Shown: positions 5,534 to 47,178 of the stretch, one piece after another | How the letters are laid out: each line of letters opens with the position of its first letter | Position numbering within the stretch: position 1 is the stretch's first letter | From: Candidatus Altimarinota bacterium | GTDB taxonomy: Bacteria > Patescibacteriota > Gracilibacteria > UBA4473 | Length of the DNA stretch: 64,000 nt | Assembly (NCBI GenBank): GCA_965231215.1 | Contig: OZ246423.1 | Coordinates: 800,001 to 864,000, forward strand | Reading direction: 5' to 3' | Translations under genes and position numbers: made by a program | The notes under the pieces: generated by a model | Told to the model about the DNA's origin: nothing | Databases searched by the model: none | Seen by the model: the letters and a program-made list of their open reading frames with translations, nothing else

Positions 5534-7867
5534 CTATTCGGGTCTGCCAAAAATTTCTCGAGGTTTAGAGCCTTTAGCCGGGCCCACTATGCCTCTAGAT
5601 TCCATCTGATCCAATAACCTAGCAGCGCGAGCATAGCCAACTTCTAATCTTCTTTGGAGGAAGCTGGCAGAGGCTTTATCGGTTTCTAGTACCAACTCCA
5701 CAGCTTCGTTAAATAGATCATCCAAATCACTATCACTGACTTCATTCACGCCAGCGGTGAGCACGCCTCCTTTGGCCATGCCTTCAATAGATTGATTGGT
5801 AATTTCGTCATTAGCGACCATTTCAGGAAATTGGAGTTTTATGTGGTTTGTTACGCGTTCTACTTCTTGAGTGCTCACATACAGCCCTTGGATTCTGGTA
5901 AGTTCCCCAGAATTTCCATCCATGTATAGCATATCTCCCATTCCCAGTAGGTCTTCGGCTCCAATGCCATCAATAATGGTTCGAGAGTCAATTCCAGAAG
6001 AAACACGGAAAGCGATACGAGCCGGCAAATTGGCCTTGATAAGCCCCGTTACGACATCTACAGAAGGTCTTTGGGTGGCTACAATCAGATGCATCCCAAC
6101 CGCCCGAGCCATTTGGGCGATTCTACAGATAGCGGCTTCTACATCTTTACCGGCTACCATCATGAGATCGGCCAGTTCATCTACGACCACCACAATGAAA
6201 GGCTCTTTTTGGTCTGGGAATTTTTCATTGTGTTCAGCGATGTTTCGGCAGCGTTTGGCCGCAAAATCTTTGTAACGGCGGTTCATCTCGGCGACGGCCC
6301 AAGCCAGAGCAGAAACTGATTTTTCCGGTTCGGTAATAACCGGGGTCAAGAGGTGTGGGAGGTGATTGTAGGGCTCTAGCTCTACGCGTTTTGGATCAAT
6401 CAAAATCATGCGTAGACTCTCTGGGGAATTATTCCATAGCAGTGAAACCAAGAACGCATTCATCGCTACCGATTTCCCAGAACCGGTTTTCCCCGCAATC
6501 AGTAAGTGCGGCATCTTGGCTAAATCAGCGACAATCGGTTTCCCGGCTACATCACGGCCAACAGATAATTTAAGATTAGAGGTTTGTTTGTCCCAGTGTT
6601 CAGATTCCAATATTTCTCGCATGCCAACCGTGGCTCGTTTTTCATTCGGGATTTCAATACCTACGAGTTTTTTACCTCGGATTGGGGCCTCGATCCGTAC
6701 ATTTTCGGCGGCAAGTGCTAAGGCTAAATCGGGTTTGAGGGCTGTAATTTTGTTCAGTTTTACTCCAGCAGCAGGTTCCAGGGTAAATTGCGTAACGGTT
6801 GGCCCTACATGCACTGAACGCATGGTTACTTCAATACCAAATTGATCGAGTTTTTCTCTAATAGCTTCAGCTTTTTGTCTGAGGCGTTTCTCGTCTACCA
6901 CAATGGTTGAAGGTTTATCTTCAAGGAGATCGAAGTGAGGGGCTTCCCAGGCCCCAAATTTTCTGTCTTTCGCCTCAGAAAGCTGATCAGCTTCTGTTTT
7001 TTTGCGGATCTCAATAGAGGTTTTTTCAAATTTAGCTTTGGATGTTTTTTTCTCAGAAGCTTCTTCCCTCTGAGGTTTCATTGAGTCAATAATTTCTACC
7101 TCGTTTTCAAAGTGACGGCGTTCAGATTTAGGGGGCTCTTTTTCAGCTTTTTTGGAGTGAGTTTTTTCAGTGGTTTTTGAAGTCACTTTTACCTCGTCCT
7201 GGGTTTCTTTTGGAGTGATGATATCCTTAATTTTTATGCCAAAAGCGACAACCCCAGTAAGCCAGAAGATGGCCATAAGCATCACTGCTGCCACCAGGTC
7301 TCCTAAAAATTCTCGTGGAAAAAACCCAACGGCAAAACCCAAAGCGCCACCGTAGTTTTTGGCCAGACTTAAACTTTCATCATGGCCTATCATCAGATTT
7401 AGAAGTCCACAGATACAGGCGAAAAAAATCAAAAAGGCAAACACTCTAGGAGCTGGGAAGTGTATGTCTTTACGCCAAAACAGAATACCTCCCAGTGCAA
7501 TACATCCAAGAGGGACTAACCATCTAGCTGAACCAAACAGCTGTCTAAAAAATTCAAAGTTAAGCCACTGGGCTAGCGGCGCTTTACTAAAGAAGATAGC
7601 TAATATTACAAGCCCCGCACAAATCCAAAGAGAGCCAATGATTTCACGTACAAAGTGATCATCAAAAAAGTTTTTAATGACCTCTTTTTCGACTTTTTGA
7701 GCTTCTACCTTTTTGGCGGCTTTTTCTTTGGCTTTAAGTTTTATAACTTTTTTTTGTTCTTTTTTGCGTTCAGCCGCAATCATCTGGCGAGCGGCTTTTT
7801 GGGCTTCTCGTTTTAGAACGCTGCTGGGGATTTTTACACTTGGAGCCTTTTTCTTACGGCTAAACAT
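5534..7867 (-). CDS. ftsK: DNA translocase FtsK/SpoIIIE
   Basis: N-terminal TM domain, MPHLLIAGKTGSGKS Walker A, VVDELADLMM, ATQRPSVDV, C-terminal gamma domain (ASASFLQRRLEVGYARAARLLDQME). Confidence 0.97.
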   Translation of the reverse strand: MFSRKKKAPSVKIPSSVLKREAQKAARQMIAAERKKEQKKVIKLKAKEKAAKKVEAQKVEKEVIKNFFDDHFVREIIGSLWICAGLVILAIFFSKAPLAQWLNFEFFRQLFGSARWLVPLGCIALGGILFWRKDIHFPAPRVFAFLIFFACICGLLNLMIGHDESLSLAKNYGGALGFAVGFFPREFLGDLVAAVMLMAIFWLTGVVAFGIKIKDIITPKETQDEVKVTSKTTEKTHSKKAEKEPPKSERRHFENEVEIIDSMKPQREEASEKKTSKAKFEKTSIEIRKKTEADQLSEAKDRKFGAWEAPHFDLLEDKPSTIVVDEKRLRQKAEAIREKLDQFGIEVTMRSVHVGPTVTQFTLEPAAGVKLNKITALKPDLALALAAENVRIEAPIRGKKLVGIEIPNEKRATVGMREILESEHWDKQTSNLKLSVGRDVAGKPIVADLAKMPHLLIAGKTGSGKSVAMNAFLVSLLWNNSPESLRMILIDPKRVELEPYNHLPHLLTPVITEPEKSVSALAWAVAEMNRRYKDFAAKRCRNIAEHNEKFPDQKEPFIVVVVDELADLMMVAGKDVEAAICRIAQMARAVGMHLIVATQRPSVDVVTGLIKANLPARIAFRVSSGIDSRTIIDGIGAEDLLGMGDMLYMDGNSGELTRIQGLYVSTQEVERVTNHIKLQFPEMVANDEITNQSIEGMAKGGVLTAGVNEVSDSDLDDLFNEAVELVLETDKASASFLQRRLEVGYARAARLLDQMESRGIVGPAKGSKPREIFGRPE

Positions 7868-40671: not shown

Positions 40672-43338
40672 ATGTCCGAAGAAGAAAACGCGAATCTTGA
40701 AGGGGCTGAGGCCCCTGAAAATAACGAAGAAAATACCCCTGAAAATACAGAAGTTGAAAGCGAAGAAGCAAGGGCTTCCACTCAACAGCTTACATTTACT
40801 GAATCAGATGGCCATATTACACAGAAAGGGCTGATTCCTGAAATTGAGGAGTCTTATTTGTCCTATGCCATGTCTGTAATTGTTTCGCGGGCGTTGCCAG
40901 ATGTGCGTGATGGATTAAAACCAGTACATCGAAGAATTCTTTATGCCATGCATGAAAATGGCCTTCGAGCTGGAGCCAAGTACCGAAAGTCAGCTAACGT
41001 CGTTGGGGCGGTGCTGGGGAAATATCATCCACATGGAGACACGGCTGTATATGACTCCATGGTGCGAATGGCTCAAGACTTTTCACTTCGATATCCACTG
41101 GTAGATGGGCAGGGAAACTTTGGCTCTATCGATGGGGATAATGCTGCAGCTATGCGTTATACAGAGGCTCGAATGACTCGAGTTTCTGAACTCATGCTGG
41201 AAGATATTGAAAAGAAAACAGTAGATTTTAGAGATAATTATGATGCGACGGCTCAAGAGCCAAGTGTGTTACCGAGTGTGGTGCCACAGCTTTTGCTTAA
41301 CGGAACGATGGGGATTGCCGTTGGGATGGCTACCAACATTCCGCCACATAATCTAGGAGAAGTCATAGAGGCCACTTTGGCTTTGCTTAAAGACCCAGAA
41401 ACAACGATTGATCAACTCTTAGAGCATATCAAAGGGCCGGATTTCCCCACCGCAGGAGAAATTTATGACGGAGGCATTATTAAAGAAATGTACCACACGG
41501 GAAGAGGGGGCGTGATTATGAGAGCCAAAACTACAATTGAAGAACTCAAAGGCGGTAAAAATGCCATTATTGTAACCGAAATTCCGTACCAAGTGAACAA
41601 AGCCGAGCTGATCATCAAAATTGCAGATTTAGTTCGAGACAAAAAAATTATTGGAATTTCAGATCTTCGTGATGAATCTAACCGTGAAGGCATTCGCGTG
41701 GTTATTGAACTTAAAAAAGACGCCTTCCCGAAGAAAATTTTGAACCAACTCTTTAAAAATACGACCTTACAAAAAAGCTTTAACCTTAACATGATTGCCT
41801 TAGTGGATGGGATTCATCCACGATTACTCAATCTTAAACAAGTCCTTAGCTATTTCCTAGATCATCGGTTTGAAGTGATTGTGCGTCGGACTCAATTTGA
41901 ATTAGACGTAGCTGAAGCTAGAGCCCATATTCTGGAAGGTCTCAAAATTGCGCTTGATGATATTGATCGAGTCATTGAAACCATCAAGGCCTCTCCCACC
42001 AAAGAAGAAGCCGGAGAAGCTTTACAGAAAAAATTTGGTCTTTCTGAGCTTCAAGCCAAAGCGATTTTAGAAATGAGACTTCAGACGCTGGCCGGACTTG
42101 AACGACAAAAAATTGAAGACGAACTTGCTGAAAAGCTAAAACTCATCCAAGCGCTTAAATCTATTCTTGAAGACAAAACCAAGCAAGCCGACATTATCGA
42201 AAAAGAATTACTACACGCTAAAGATAAATTTGGAGACAAAAGAAAAACACTCGTGCACGCTCATGGACTTGGTAAATTTAGTGCCAAAGACACCATCCCA
42301 GATGAGGAAATGTTGACCGTGTTGACCGAACAAAACTACATTAAACGAATGAGCCCCAGCAACTTCCGAGCTCAGCGACGTGGGGGAGTCGGAGTCAAAG
42401 GTGCCCAGACCAAAGAAGAAGATATTATTGCCAAATCCGTGTATGGAACTAATCACAATGACTTGCTGTTTTTTACTAACTTTGGACGGGTGTTCTCACT
42501 GCCAATGTATGAAATTCCGGAAGCATCACGAACCGCTAAAGGCACTCCTGTAATTAATTTACTTCAACTTCAACCGGAAGAAAAAGTGACTGAAATTCTA
42601 AATCTCAGCCGATCAGAAGGCAAATACATTGTAATGTGCACCACTGGTGGAACTATCAAAAAAACAGATCTAGAACTCTTCAAAAATATCCGAAGAAGTG
42701 GCCTTATTGCCTGTGGAGTAAAAGAAGGCGAAACGCTGCAATGGGCACGAATGTCTACGGGTGAAGACGATATCTTTGTCGTAACTCATGAAGGGAAATC
42801 GATCCGATTTAATGAAGGCGATGTTCGAGCCATGGGACGAGCCGCCGCTGGAGTACGAGGAATCAGACTCAAAGGAAAAGATCATGTAATCCAAATGGAC
42901 ATTCTTAAAAGTGACGAGGCCAGGCTCCTCACCGTTATGGAAAATGGACTTGGGAAAATGTCGGCTGTATCTGAGTACCGAAACCAATCACGGGGTGGCG
43001 CTGGAGTAAAAGTAGCGAACATCACTAAAAAAACAGGGAAAGTGGCTGGAGCCAGAGTGATTGGATCAGAGGCCAAAGGCGATCTTCTTATCGTCACACA
43101 AAACGGACAAACACTACGAACCCCACTTGAAGGGATTAAAACAGCCGGTCGCGCTACTCAAGGAGTAATTTTGATGAAATCTAAAGACGATACAGTGTCT
43201 TCTATTTCAATTATTCACGAAGAAGACCCAAACAAAAAAGAGCCTGAAGCGCCAAAAGCAGAATCGAAAGACACTCAACCACAACTTGAAATAAACAACT
43301 ATCAAGACGAAAACACCGATGAAGCCGATAAAAGTTAA
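40672..43338 (+). CDS. gyrA: DNA gyrase subunit A
   Basis: [29 protein letters not shown] catalytic Tyr, GyrA-box QRRGGVG. Confidence 0.98.
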
Positions 43339-44353
43339 GGTGCCAGCCAAACCAAGCGAGTATGAAATTGCCTTTCATGATTCCTTTGGGGCACTTGTAA
43401 AAACGCTGAGGGCACAAATTGGAGACCGGAAATTTATTATTGTTTCTGATCACAATGTGATAGAAAAAACAGCTTTTTTTGCTAAAGATTTAGATCTGGA
43501 TGACACAATATTGGTTTCACTTAAACCCGGAGAAACAGAGAAAAATTGGGAGTCCATTGATCATATCCTTCATTCGGCTTTTGATGCGGGACTTGATCGA
43601 GGGAGTGTGATGGTCGCAGTAGGAGGAGGCGTTATTGGCGATATGACGGGGTTTGCCGCGAGTATTTTTATGCGTGGAATTCCGTTTATTCAGGTGCCTA
43701 CCACTTTGTTGGCCATGGTAGACGCCTCAATTGGGGGAAAAACAGGGATTGATTGTCAGTATGGAAAAAACCTCATTGGAGCCATTCAACAACCAGAGGC
43801 GGTGATGGTTTGTCCTAAATTTTTAGAGACCCTGCCTGAAATTGAAATTAAAAACGGTTTAGCGGAAATGGTAAAACACGGTGTGGTCGCTGATAAAAAA
43901 CATTTTGAAGATTTAGAAAAGCTGGCTCAAGAAGATTTTAGTACGATTCGTTCCAAGATTTTTGATTATGCTCCGGCTTCAATCAATATCAAAAAAACCA
44001 TAGTAGAATCAGATGAAAAAGAATCTGGAAAACGAAAATTCCTCAATTTTGGACACACCTTTGGACACGCTATTGAGCTATGTTCCAATTTTGAAATTCC
44101 TCATGGACGGGCGGTAGCGATTGGCTGCGTTATGGCCTCTCAGTACGCCTATGAACACGGGTTGTGTGAGGATGAAACCGTAGATCGAATCGAAAACATT
44201 TTCAATCAGTTTGAAGTAGATCTCACCTGTGAGATTTCGGAAGCAGATATTTGGAACGCAATGAGCCGCGACAAGAAAAAATTTGGCTCTACACTCACGC
44301 TTATTCTTCCCAAAAAGATTGGAGAAGTAGATTATTTTAAGGTTGAAGTTTGA
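43319..44353 (+). CDS. aroB: 3-dehydroquinate synthase
   Basis: [48 protein letters not shown]. Confidence 0.95.
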
Positions 44354-44378
44354 CATAAAAAGTTAACTTCCCTAGGCT
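44350..44378 (+). promoter_or_regulatory. sigma70-type promoter of the leader-ppcA-aspC transcript
   Basis: TTGACA (44350) - 17 bp - TAGGCT (44373); spacer contains the palindrome AAGTTAACTT. Confidence 0.7.
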
Positions 44379-44388
44379 TAGCAAGCGC

Positions 44389-44448
44389 ATGTTTTTAACC
44401 AATATTAAAACCGCAAATAATAATCGAAATGTGTTTCGAGCGGTTTAG
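44389..44448 (+). CDS. Asn-rich leader peptide (MFLTNIKTANNNRNVFRAV)
   Basis: 19 codons, 5 of them AAT (Asn) including an NNN-R-N run; lies between the promoter and a terminator upstream of ppcA. Confidence 0.7.
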   Translation: MFLTNIKTANNNRNVFRAV

Positions 44449-44506
44449 TTGATGCGTTAAAATTTTTTACCTCTTCACCCACCGCTCAAACAGAAGCGGC
44501 TTTTTT
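44408..44506 (+). promoter_or_regulatory. transcription attenuator (protector / antiterminator / terminator)
   Basis: 1:2 = AAACCGC/GCGGTTT plus TCGAAA/TTTCGA; 2:3 = GAGCGGT(44438)/ACCGCTC(44481); 3:4 = CCGCT/AGCGG followed by C-TTTTTT. Confidence 0.65.
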
Positions 44507-44509
44507 CAC

Positions 44510-46024
44510 ATGGCTCACAGACACATACCGGCAACGATGGCAACTCAACATCCAGACAATAGTTTTCCCTCTGTTTTTACAGGTAGTGCATTTGTCTCTA
44601 GCCGAGAAGAAATAGATGAATGTTATGAATGTTTTGATTCTCTGGGAGTAGAAGAGTACATGTGGGATTGGGAAGGAAAGTTTGTAGATGAAGCCGTTAT
44701 GGAGCGGCTTTTTACCCAATACCATGACTATTTTAAACAAAACGCCATTGGAAAAGATAAATTTCTGACCTTTAGAATCCCTAATATTTGGGAAGAACCT
44801 TCAGCTAAATTGCCGCGTGCTTTTATGAATTTAGTATCAGCCGAACAAGCGGCTAAAAACTATGGCATGCACAGACCCCCATTGTTTGAAGTGATTCAGC
44901 CAATGACCACGTCCAGTGAACAGCTCAAATACCTTCAACAAAAATTTACCCAAATTGCGGAAAGTACCTCTGATATTTTTGAACTCAAACAACACCTCAA
45001 ACATGTGGAGCTTATCCCCCTGTTTGAAGCGATTGAAAGTATGGCTGAGTCGGACCAAATTTTGGGGGAGTATGTTGACTTTATGGAGTCGGAATATGAT
45101 TACACTCCTGAATATTTGAGAGTGTTTATTGCTCGATCAGATCCAGCGATGAATGCCGGCATCATTCCAACCATGCTAGCGGTAAAACATTCACTTTCTA
45201 GCTATCATGAATTTGGTAAATCTAGGGGGATTGAAATTTATCCCTGGATTGGAGGAGGCAGTCTGCCCTTCCGAGGCGGTATTAACCCCGATAATGTAGA
45301 ACCAACTCTAGAAGAATACAGAGGAACCGCTTCGGTCACTATTCAATCGGCTTTCCGGTTTGATTATGAGTTTAACAGGGTAAAAAAAGCTATTGATACC
45401 TTTAATAAACGTCTCCCTGAAATGCGAACTACTTATAGAAAAGTAACACCGGTAGAAGGCCAAGTGATTAAAAAATTTAATGCTCAAGCCAAAACCTATT
45501 TTACAGAAGTGATAGAACCTATGGCTGATTTAATTAACCAGGTGGCGGGTACCCTCCCAAATAATCGAGAAAGGGTGCAACACGTGGGAATCTTTGGATA
45601 CGCACGTGGCGTGGGGAAAGTAAAACTGCCTCGAGCCATAAAATTCTGTGGAGCCTTTTATAGCTTAGGGATTCCGCCAGAACTTATTGGCACTGGTAGA
45701 GCGCTCAAATTGGCTCAAGAAACGGGATGCTTGGATTTGGTTTTGGATTTATATAAAAACATTAAAGCAGATCTCATTCATGCCGGGCATTACCTGAATC
45801 GTGAAAATTTGGAACTAGTAGCTAAGTCGTATGATGCGGCGAAACTTATCCTCCAAGATATTGAACTCATTGAGGAAATCTTAAATATAAACATTGGCCC
45901 AGAATCAGAGAAGCACCTGATTCACCGCAACATAGCCTCAAACATCTATCACAAATTGAATCTAGATTATGACCTTGAGTTTGATCTATTAGAGGCGGCT
46001 AAAATTAGACAATCTATTGGTTAA
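44510..46024 (+). CDS. ppcA: phosphoenolpyruvate carboxylase, archaeal-type
   Basis: IPATMATQHPDN, EYMWDWEGK, FEVIQPMT, RVFIARSDPAMNAG, GSLPFRGG, LPRAIKFCGAFYSLGIPPELIG. Confidence 0.93.
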   Translation: MAHRHIPATMATQHPDNSFPSVFTGSAFVSSREEIDECYECFDSLGVEEYMWDWEGKFVDEAVMERLFTQYHDYFKQNAIGKDKFLTFRIPNIWEEPSAKLPRAFMNLVSAEQAAKNYGMHRPPLFEVIQPMTTSSEQLKYLQQKFTQIAESTSDIFELKQHLKHVELIPLFEAIESMAESDQILGEYVDFMESEYDYTPEYLRVFIARSDPAMNAGIIPTMLAVKHSLSSYHEFGKSRGIEIYPWIGGGSLPFRGGINPDNVEPTLEEYRGTASVTIQSAFRFDYEFNRVKKAIDTFNKRLPEMRTTYRKVTPVEGQVIKKFNAQAKTYFTEVIEPMADLINQVAGTLPNNRERVQHVGIFGYARGVGKVKLPRAIKFCGAFYSLGIPPELIGTGRALKLAQETGCLDLVLDLYKNIKADLIHAGHYLNRENLELVAKSYDAAKLILQDIELIEEILNINIGPESEKHLIHRNIASNIYHKLNLDYDLEFDLLEAAKIRQSIG

Positions 46025-46035
46025 CCCCTAGAAAT

Positions 46036-47178
46036 ATGTTTGATAAAAACCTGACATCGCTCCCAATGGACCCTATTTTTAAAGTGGTTAAAGCGCATAA
46101 AGATGATCCCCGTTCTGAAAAGGTTAATTTGGGGATCGGTATTTATCGGGACACAGAAGGGGCTCCCTTTGTTTTTAAATCCGTTCAAGAAGCCGCTCGT
46201 CGGGTATTAGTGGATAATTTTGAGTATGACACTATGCAGGGGAGCGCTTCTTTCTTAGAAATGGCTACCAACTGGGTGCTTGGAGAGGGCTCCTTTGCCT
46301 ATACAGCCGTACAACAATCAATTGGCGGAACTCACGCCTTGCGCCTGGTTGCAGAGTTTTTTGAAGCCCAAAAATCTAAGCCCAAGCTACTGGTTGGAAC
46401 GCCTACCTGGTCAAACCACTTTGATGTGTTTGGGGCTTTTGAAGCCGTCACTTTTGATCATTTAACTTCGGATTATCGGCTTAATGTTGAGGCTTATCTG
46501 ACCGCTATAAAATCGAATCCTCAGTCTTGTTTAATTCTCCATGGCGGAGCAACCCATAATCCGACGGGAATAAATCTGAGTGTAGCAGATTTAGACCAAA
46601 TATTAATAGCGGCTAATGAGGCCGAAGTTTTTGTAATTATTGATGCGGCTTATATAGGATTTGGAGAGGGATTAGAAGCCGATATAAATTGGGTTCGTCG
46701 CGCTTTTGAGGCTTGTAATCAAGGCACTTTGGCGATTTCTTTTTCAAAAAACGCTTCTCTGTATAACCAGCGTTTGGGACTTCTTTGTTGGAAAACTGAG
46801 ACGGCTCAATTAAAAAGGGTTCTAGAGTCTCATTTGCAGCAATTAGTTCGAGCGACGATTTCAAATTTACCAGCCTACGGTGCGGCTATAATGGAGCAGG
46901 TGCTTCGTGATAATCGAGCACAATGGATTGAGGAATTAGAGCAAGTGCGTCTTGATGTAAACGAGCGCAGAGTTCGGCTTGTGGAGATGATTCCCGATAC
47001 TTTTAATTTTTTGATCAATACAAAAGGACTTTTTGGATTGAGTGGGTTAACCCCTCTGCAAGTTAAAAAACTTAGGACGGATTCAGCGATCTATATGCCG
47101 CCAAATGGGCGAATAAATTTTGCGAGTATTCGTACCCAAGATTTTGAAGTTTTAGGAAAAGCCCTAAGGGAGGCTTGA
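46036..47178 (+). CDS. aspC: aspartate/aromatic aminotransferase (class I)
   Basis: KVNLGIGIYRD, QSIGGTHALR, HNPTG, DAAYIGFG, SFSKNASLYNQRLG (PLP Lys), GRINFA. Confidence 0.88.
   Translation: MFDKNLTSLPMDPIFKVVKAHKDDPRSEKVNLGIGIYRDTEGAPFVFKSVQEAARRVLVDNFEYDTMQGSASFLEMATNWVLGEGSFAYTAVQQSIGGTHALRLVAEFFEAQKSKPKLLVGTPTWSNHFDVFGAFEAVTFDHLTSDYRLNVEAYLTAIKSNPQSCLILHGGATHNPTGINLSVADLDQILIAANEAEVFVIIDAAYIGFGEGLEADINWVRRAFEACNQGTLAISFSKNASLYNQRLGLLCWKTETAQLKRVLESHLQQLVRATISNLPAYGAAIMEQVLRDNRAQWIEELEQVRLDVNERRVRLVEMIPDTFNFLINTKGLFGLSGLTPLQVKKLRTDSAIYMPPNGRINFASIRTQDFEVLGKALREA

Follow-up and report, generated by a model that had tools for sequence, protein, structure and literature searches.

The Proteobacterial trp, his, thr, phe and ilv attenuators share a common design, in which a short upstream open reading frame (uORF) carrying cognate codons is followed by mutually exclusive 1:2, 2:3 and 3:4 pairings and a U tract before the first gene. 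Leader-peptide attenuation is textbook for Trp, His, Leu, Thr, Phe, Ile and Val, and aminoacyl-tRNA synthetase genes are controlled by pheST-type leaders and, in Firmicutes, by the T-box. Here we describe a candidate Asn-reading leader in a window of 64,000 nucleotides (contig OZ246423.1, positions 800,001 to 864,000 of the forward strand) from a Candidatus Altimarinota bacterium, a member of the Candidate Phyla Radiation (CPR) whose genome (G000) is complete, 1.33 Mb long and 40% G+C. The leader lies in the 156-nt spacer between aroB (43319–44353) and ppcA (44510–46024), the latter encoding a phosphoenolpyruvate (PEP) carboxylase and followed by an aminotransferase gene that we call aspC. Judged from its sequence, this leader is probably a functional, ribosome-mediated transcription attenuator of the trp/his/leu type that responds to Asn codons.

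Compared with the textbook Proteobacterial attenuators, the leader has the same codon run in a uORF, the same four segments and the same U tract. It differs in that it would sense Asn, in its near-leaderless uORF without a Shine-Dalgarno sequence, in its anaplerotic target and in its CPR host. An Rfam cmscan search of positions 43800–45000 (E-values up to 10) returned no leader or riboswitch family and no T-box, giving only an unrelated 16.5-bit match at 43835–43983. Neither an Asn-reading leader attenuator nor a report of attenuation in CPR bacteria was found in a literature search that did not cover subscription journals. The features of the locus are as follows.

44350–44355, plus strand: −35 hexamer TTGACA, read from the sequence, overlapping the aroB stop codon.
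44351–44353, plus strand: aroB stop codon TGA, inside TTGACA.
44373–44378, plus strand: −10-like hexamer TAGGCT, after a 17-nt spacer from TTGACA and 10 nt upstream of the uORF ATG.
44389–44448, plus strand: leader-peptide uORF MFLTNIKTANNNRNVFRAV, with its ATG at 44389 and 19 codons plus TAG.
44408–44429, plus strand: segment 1, AAACCGC (44408–44414) and TCGAAA (44424–44429), paired with segment 2 in the minimum-energy fold.
44416–44430, plus strand: putative regulatory codons AAT AAT AAT CGA AAT (N10–N12, R13, N14), read from the sequence.
44433–44446, plus strand: segment 2, GTTTCGAGCGGTTT, reaching into the uORF stop codon.
44481–44491, plus strand: segment 3, ACCGCTCAAAC, with segment 2 (antiterminator) or segment 4 (terminator) as alternative partners.
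44495–44506, plus strand: segment 4, AGCGG, then C and T6 (44501–44506), forming the terminator's 3′ arm and tail.
44510–46024, plus strand: ppcA, archaeal-type PEP carboxylase of 504 amino acids (PF14010, 445 bits; TIGR02751, 471.8 bits).
46036–47178, plus strand: putative AspC/TyrB-type aminotransferase of 380 amino acids (PF00155), 11 nt downstream of ppcA.

The promoter, the 19-codon uORF, the three pairings and the six-residue U tract that a preliminary description had proposed were all found at these positions by direct reading. From the −10 position we infer a transcription start that would leave the uORF mRNA with almost no 5′ leader. TTGACA-17-TAGGCT was not listed by a promoter scan of a 10-kb stretch, because TAGGCT matches at only three of six positions. 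Neither the uORF nor ppcA is preceded by a Shine-Dalgarno sequence, which is normal here because such a motif is seen at 5.4% of 1105 crude gene starts in this genome, where G is depleted upstream; gene calls were the longest open reading frames of at least 80 amino acids, chosen greedily, and scans for short open reading frames (sORFs) considered ATG starts only. All five Asn codons of the uORF are AAT, and four of them fall in the N-N-N-R-N stretch of codons 10–14. The aminotransferase scores 296 bits against NF006719, under the cut-off of 377, and its assignment to the AspC/TyrB type is a probable one made from sequence. Farther downstream lie dapA-like and dapB-like genes. Contigs of three DNA runs match the window exactly where they overlap it, with no variants. 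In run X2, a 1000-nt contig agrees with 44183–44590 but has unrelated sequence upstream of 44183, owing either to strain variation or to an assembly artefact.

In the 1:2 pairing, AAACCGC (44408–44414) pairs with GCGGTTT (44440–44446) and TCGAAA (44424–44429) with TTTCGA (44434–44439), with a duplex energy of −14.8 kcal/mol. In 2:3, GAGCGGT (44438–44444) pairs with ACCGCTC (44481–44487), extended by GUUU/AAAC with one bulged C, at −15.8 kcal/mol. The 3:4 terminator joins CCGCT (44482–44486) to AGCGG (44495–44499) through five pairs, four of them G-C, around an 8-nt loop, with an energy of −5.9 (core) to −7.0 kcal/mol. The antiterminator is more stable than the terminator, whose 5′ arm it shares, and 44433–44506 folded alone adopts the antiterminator (−16.2 kcal/mol).

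The closest comparison is with leu attenuation, for which this lineage offers Leu leaders of its own in five Peribacteria-like genomes (G000, the sister species G004, G002, G003 and G024); they have the same promoter-to-ATG geometry and the same CGA GCG GTT TAG ending as the Asn leader. A profile was built from these five Leu-leader attenuator domains, with the Asn sequence left out, and the whole 1.33-Mb genome was searched with nhmmer. The best non-self match was the Asn leader, on the plus strand at 844434–844501 (window 44434–44501; E = 0.0011, 19.9 bits); the self match had E = 1.5e-17, and all matches ranking after the Asn leader had E-values of at least 0.07. Weaker matches at 667104 and 677649 were dropped, being inside genes.

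Aligned without gaps from the stop codon, the uORF and the G004 Leu leader read ..TLLLLRLEYRAV and ..TANNNRNVFRAV, respectively. The last nine codons are CTT CGA CTC GAA TAT CGA GCG GTT TAG in the G004 Leu leader and AAT CGA AAT GTG TTT CGA GCG GTT TAG in the Asn leader. Read as amino acids, L R L E Y R A V is matched by N R N V F R A V and, farther upstream, LLL by NNN. Asn stands at −10, −9, −8 and −6 from the stop, which are the Leu positions of the Leu leaders, with Arg at −7 and RAV at −3 to −1 kept. The 13-mer TCGAGCGGTTTAG in segment 2 is identical in the Asn leader and in both the G000 and the G004 Leu leader; all three also have segment 3 (AC.GCTC) and segment 4, as well as the U tract, in common. 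Given the Asn leader and the five Leu leaders, RNAalifold returned the 2:3 helix unprompted, with 10 pairs, of which five changed on both sides in at least one of the six sequences (compensatory changes). Terminator pair 44483:44498 is C-G in the Asn leader, A-T in the G000 Leu leader and T-G in the G004 Leu leader; in the MAFFT alignment, segment 4 is out of register for three sequences.

The two kinds of leader therefore share segment 2, homologous segments 3 and 4 and U tract, and the placing of the regulatory codons relative to the stop. They differ in that the Asn leader has AAT for the Leu codons, in the unrelated 5′ third of the uORF, in a terminator stem of 5 bp instead of 6–10 bp, and in the genes controlled, which are PEP carboxylase and an aminotransferase and not leucine biosynthesis. 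Since the uORF holds a single Leu and ppcA and the aminotransferase gene lie downstream, the element is better described as a derived paralogue with changed specificity than as a Leu leader. These comparisons clearly indicate that the Asn leader descends from a Leu-type leader of this lineage in which Asn codons replaced the Leu codons. A duplicated Leu-type leader could, however, also persist before ppcA-aspC as a relic that senses nothing; its Asn run would be functionless, and any remaining activity would be limited to constant, leaky termination. We consider this unlikely, as the frame is intact, the ATG lies at the family distance from TTGACA-17-TAnnnT, the stop codon is that of the Leu leaders, and neither the 2:3 and 3:4 helices nor the U tract has been lost. 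Moreover, all four Leu positions became AAT, which drift does not explain because at least two base changes are needed at each.

The Asn leader also belongs to a wider family, in which a promoter, ATG, codon run and terminator precede the gene. We searched G000 for TTGAC[AT], 16–18 nt, TAnnnT, 5–13 nt and an ATG opening an intergenic sORF of up to 45 amino acids, with a same-strand gene within 400 nt. Five of the seven matches were sORFs with a residue run, namely Asn before ppcA, Leu before leuA, Val before valS, PAPRPP before a proB-like gene, and a sORF rich in Phe, Tyr and Trp before a DAHP synthase gene. From sORF ATG to gene start these five span 113–136 nt (121 nt for the Asn leader). 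Members found by the promoter pattern have TTGACA or TTGACT, 16–17 nt, TAnnnT, an ATG 9–12 nt on and a gene start 113–152 nt after the ATG; the Asn leader, at 17, 10 and 121 nt, falls within these figures. TTGACA or TTGACT lies 16–17 nt upstream of TAnnnT in the Leu, Val, Pro, aromatic and Thr leaders. The other members are listed below.

Leu leader of G000, MKNFSLLLLLTLEIRAV: L233:3034–3147, minus strand (G000:C1 ~1119158–1119271), before leuA-leuC-leuD, with terminator.
Leu leader of G004, MKNTLLTLLLLRLEYRAV: L234:1343–1465, plus strand, before leuA-leuC-leuD, with terminator.
Val leader of G000, MRQPFVVVVNV: L228:3468–3640, minus strand, before valS, with promoter and terminator.
Val leader of G004, MKNSFVVVVVNL: L210 ~7428–7560, minus strand, before valS, with promoter and terminator.
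Thr leader of G000, MQNTTNTTTAKAG: G000:C1:655250–655440, plus strand, before thrS, with terminator.
Thr leader of G004, MFTASTTQTTTTTPV: L205:13765–13886, plus strand, before thrS, with terminator.
Pro leaders of G000, MKNLIVVPAPRPPQN (L230:430–612, plus strand), and G004, MTYTVSVPAPRRPLK: before a proB-like kinase gene (weak match).
Aromatic leader of G000, MQKFFYGFFYFWFNRGLA: L231:140–312, plus strand, before a DAHP synthase gene; the G004 sORF counterpart is MQQFFSAFFYFWTT.
His leader of G004, MFKQTVVNAHHHSEHHFVAVFV: L185:13226–13370, plus strand, before hisG-like and hisIE genes.
Met-rich sORFs (6 and 5 Met) of G000 and G004: L159:3510–3661 and L160:2638–2810, both minus strand, before an operon for Pyr_redox_2-like, GAF and serine hydroxymethyltransferase proteins.

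The codon run agrees with the downstream gene throughout the Leu/leuA, Val/valS, Thr/thrS, Pro/proB-like, aromatic/DAHP synthase and His/his pairs, with downstream-gene scores of 864 bits for valS, 750 for leuA, 675 for leuC, 348 for DAHP synthase and only 65 for proB. In G004, whose whole genome was scanned, leaders precede leuA (Leu), valS (Val), a proB-like gene (Pro), the same oxidoreductase operon (Met), hisG-like/hisIE (His) and thrS (Thr). No His leader was found in G000, and the G004 hisG-like and hisIE proteins had no tblastn match there. A Leu-run sORF lies upstream of leuA in seven of the 10 relatives possessing leuA. G000 itself holds at least seven such amino-acid leaders, so the Asn leader is no oddity in this CPR genome, and the earlier remark that such control is unexpected in a reduced CPR genome is corrected accordingly; the proposed attenuator architecture, for its part, gains support from this paralogous family and from the Leu-leader homology. 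With valS, an aminoacyl-tRNA synthetase gene is under predicted leader-peptide control in a CPR genome. As in pheST and T-box control, valS and thrS have leaders here, of Val and Thr, so that expression would be adjusted to tRNA charging in the manner of the Asn leader, which would instead control metabolic genes.

The Met-rich sORF of G004, MAMTMMMTSLKRSGRISA, is followed by a strong terminator, and its leader DNA is very different from that of G000. The first gene of this operon has 97% protein identity between the two species, compared with ~70–81% for other genes, which suggests recent exchange of the operon. Separately, a conserved sORF ending in ..RPSGKGRKEV, with no obvious codon run, precedes glyA (serine hydroxymethyltransferase) in both species (G000:C1 ~634479–634640 and G004:C1 ~833612–833771, both minus strand).

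We modelled the effect of ribosome position by allowing RNA to pair only from 13 or 16 nt beyond the A-site codon onward. With the A site on codons 5–12 the antiterminator had a probability of 0.96–1.00, and from codon 14 to the stop the terminator had a probability of 0.98–1.00, codon 13 being the border. In the model, the switch point is therefore directly after the Asn run, between codons 13 and 14, in line with the earlier prediction that a stall on the Asn codons frees 2:3. When this model is applied to the Leu, His, Thr and Pro leaders, their antiterminated windows fall on the regulatory codons. A translation-coupled switch with another input was also considered, which would respond to translation capacity or to the CGA Arg codons, or in which the hairpin would control the ppcA translation start. 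The U tract ends at 44506, 3 nt upstream of the ppcA ATG, so that the 3:4 hairpin abuts the start codon; in a genome that makes no use of Shine-Dalgarno sequences, local structure could matter for initiation, and the uORF does have two CGA codons. The CGA codons are, however, explained by structure, because they are kept in the Leu leaders too, within TCGA stems, while the hairpin and U tract match the terminators of the other leaders. A run of identical codons is, in all other members, the hallmark of amino-acid-specific sensing, and we regard a switch of this other kind as improbable.

The remaining alternative is that the layout arose by chance, the hairpins being one or more aroB terminators and the uORF an accidental short frame in an AT-rich spacer. 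We scanned the 510 G000 upstream regions that are 90 nt or longer for a terminator-like hairpin, 2:3 and 1:2 pairings of −10 kcal/mol or below, and a suitably placed ATG sORF with at least four of five residues identical. The full layout occurred once, at ppcA, and in dinucleotide-shuffled genomes it appeared in only 1/60 and 2/230. As the criteria were set after the example had been seen, these rarity figures are only indicative. Without the residue cluster, the layout is expected 0.23–0.30 times per genome (from shuffles); one of 510 reverse-complement decoy regions also shows the layout, and 24 of 922 intergenic ATG sORFs have at least four identical residues in five. The ppcA uORF is, however, the sole Asn-cluster sORF of the genome, its promoter geometry and distances fit the family, and its match as the best non-self hit of the Leu profile is hard to reconcile with coincidence. 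A repeat artefact is not indicated, as blastn of the 156-nt spacer found no other copy in the genome, nor in the loci examined. We judge chance very improbable, and a reading as tandem aroB terminators or chance was abandoned once the leader family had been found. Terminator-like hairpins as such are ~2.4-fold enriched in G000 upstream regions (84, compared with 35 in shuffles); a terminator scan of the 10-kb stretch showed no excess (10 found, 9.9 expected). When the layout scan was relaxed to −8 kcal/mol, the second site to appear was the Met-rich sORF before the oxidoreductase-GAF-serine hydroxymethyltransferase operon.

Several observations weigh against a functional Asn attenuator. The first concern conservation. 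The leader before ppcA is known from one genome only, and the combination of 13-mer, sORF and T run occurs, among 43 family genomes, only in G000 (Asn and Leu) and G004 (Leu). A check of relatives for Asn- or Asp-rich uORFs before ppcA, suggested in the preliminary description, came out negative: of the 15 ppcA loci whose upstream gap exceeds 50 nt (some of these being the same contig in two collections), none has such an ATG sORF; in the five ppcA-bearing relatives the gene has different neighbours upstream, and this uORF is absent; and the closest ppcA (L074, 78% identity) has a 29-nt upstream gap and no leader. This absence of orthologous conservation is explained by no relative having the aroB-ppcA junction. 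The gene ppcA is present in only six of 41 related genomes and in 0/4 other genomes of the genus, with its nearest homologues in Peregrinibacteria or Peribacteria; tblastn of ppcA and aspC found no match in G004, and in three of the four other genus genomes aroB is followed by different genes and unrelated spacers. Orthologues were accordingly set aside as a route to conservation, since the upstream regions of the relatives' ppcA genes share nothing with this leader.

When the 13-mer was searched for in the 43 family genomes with one mismatch allowed, matches were about as frequent as in the reversed control, and only exact or sORF-linked matches are meaningful. One sORF, MSKITTFPTATWVKQVARAV (L249, minus strand; G002:C9 ~240630), ends in a one-mismatch copy of the 13-mer. 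It has no T run or downstream open reading frame within the stretch examined, and may be another diverged paralogue.

The second group of objections concerns the RNA. The terminator is weak, with a 5-bp stem and an 8-nt loop, and 78% of 64 terminator-like sites after genes in this genome are at least as stable, good ones reaching −14 to −25 kcal/mol; the G004 Leu terminator is likewise modest (6 bp, 13-nt loop). One inner terminator pair of the Leu leaders has been lost, leaving C-A at alignment columns 64/119. The gap between U tract and ATG is 3 nt here and 12–29 nt in most other leaders, although it is also 3 nt in the G000 Met candidate. Fold-stability z-scores are ordinary (−1.21, −1.58 and −1.66). 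In the equilibrium model, 2:3 is favoured over 1:2 plus 3:4 even with segment 1 free, giving the antiterminator from codon 1, and default termination must therefore rest on folding order. Finally, the link from Asn codons to an Asp operon is indirect, with no Asp codon in the leader. A terminator weaker than in the Leu leaders and missing a conserved pair, occurrence in a single genome and ordinary z-scores are what a decayed duplicate would also show, and it is on these points that the relic explanation draws. The retained frame, codon replacements and helices described above lead us nevertheless to favour a functional Asn attenuator.

The indirect link has a rationale in how Asn-tRNA would be supplied. 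Searches of the genome with models for asnS, asnA and asn_synth_AEB gave no match over their cut-offs. There are two class-IIb synthetases, LysRS and a single AspRS, together with GatA (561 bits), GatB (507 bits) and one tRNA-Asn(GTT). With no AsnRS, AsnA or AsnB, but with AspRS and GatA/GatB, Asn-tRNA would be made only from aspartate attached to tRNA(Asn), the GatCAB route on which the preliminary description had made its aspartate argument depend. The Asn codons would in this way be linked to the aspartate formed by PpcA and the aminotransferase. The LysRS gene (L154:1309–3945, plus strand) encodes 878 amino acids, ~380 residues more than the family model.

In the proposed mechanism, which builds on the layout, energies, Leu-leader homology, family context and gene content given above, transcription from TTGACA-17-TAGGCT would begin a few bases upstream of the uORF ATG. 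A ribosome reaching the TAG at 44446 would cover segment 2, so that 3:4 pairs and transcription ends at the U tract just before ppcA. When Asn-tRNA(Asn) is scarce, the ribosome would stall on AAT AAT AAT (codons 10–12), masking segment 1 and leaving segment 2 free; the stronger 2:3 helix would then form, the terminator would be excluded and ppcA-aspC would be transcribed. If the uORF is not translated, 1:2 would form first and transcription would terminate. The operon would make aspartate from PEP via oxaloacetate, and the Asn codons would report both aspartate supply and the amide donor.

More broadly, we propose that modular attenuators of this lineage were re-coded, LLLRL becoming NNNRN, and that one was set before a newly acquired ppcA-aspC pair as the first Asn-reading attenuator, the amidation route sensing aspartate and amide nitrogen and coupling them to anaplerotic CO2 fixation. 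For this joint proposition we see the case as evenly balanced. The predicted target is central-carbon anaplerosis, through PEP carboxylase and aspartate aminotransferase, and not a classical amino-acid pathway. CPR bacteria are usually called regulation-poor, yet this 1.3-Mb genome has at least seven predicted switches of a near-leaderless, Shine-Dalgarno-free kind, and the apparent descent from Leu to Asn offers a rare view of a regulatory RNA changing its specificity. If true, this organism would use tRNA-dependent amidation, by a non-discriminating AspRS and GatCAB, to gauge its supply of aspartate and amide nitrogen.

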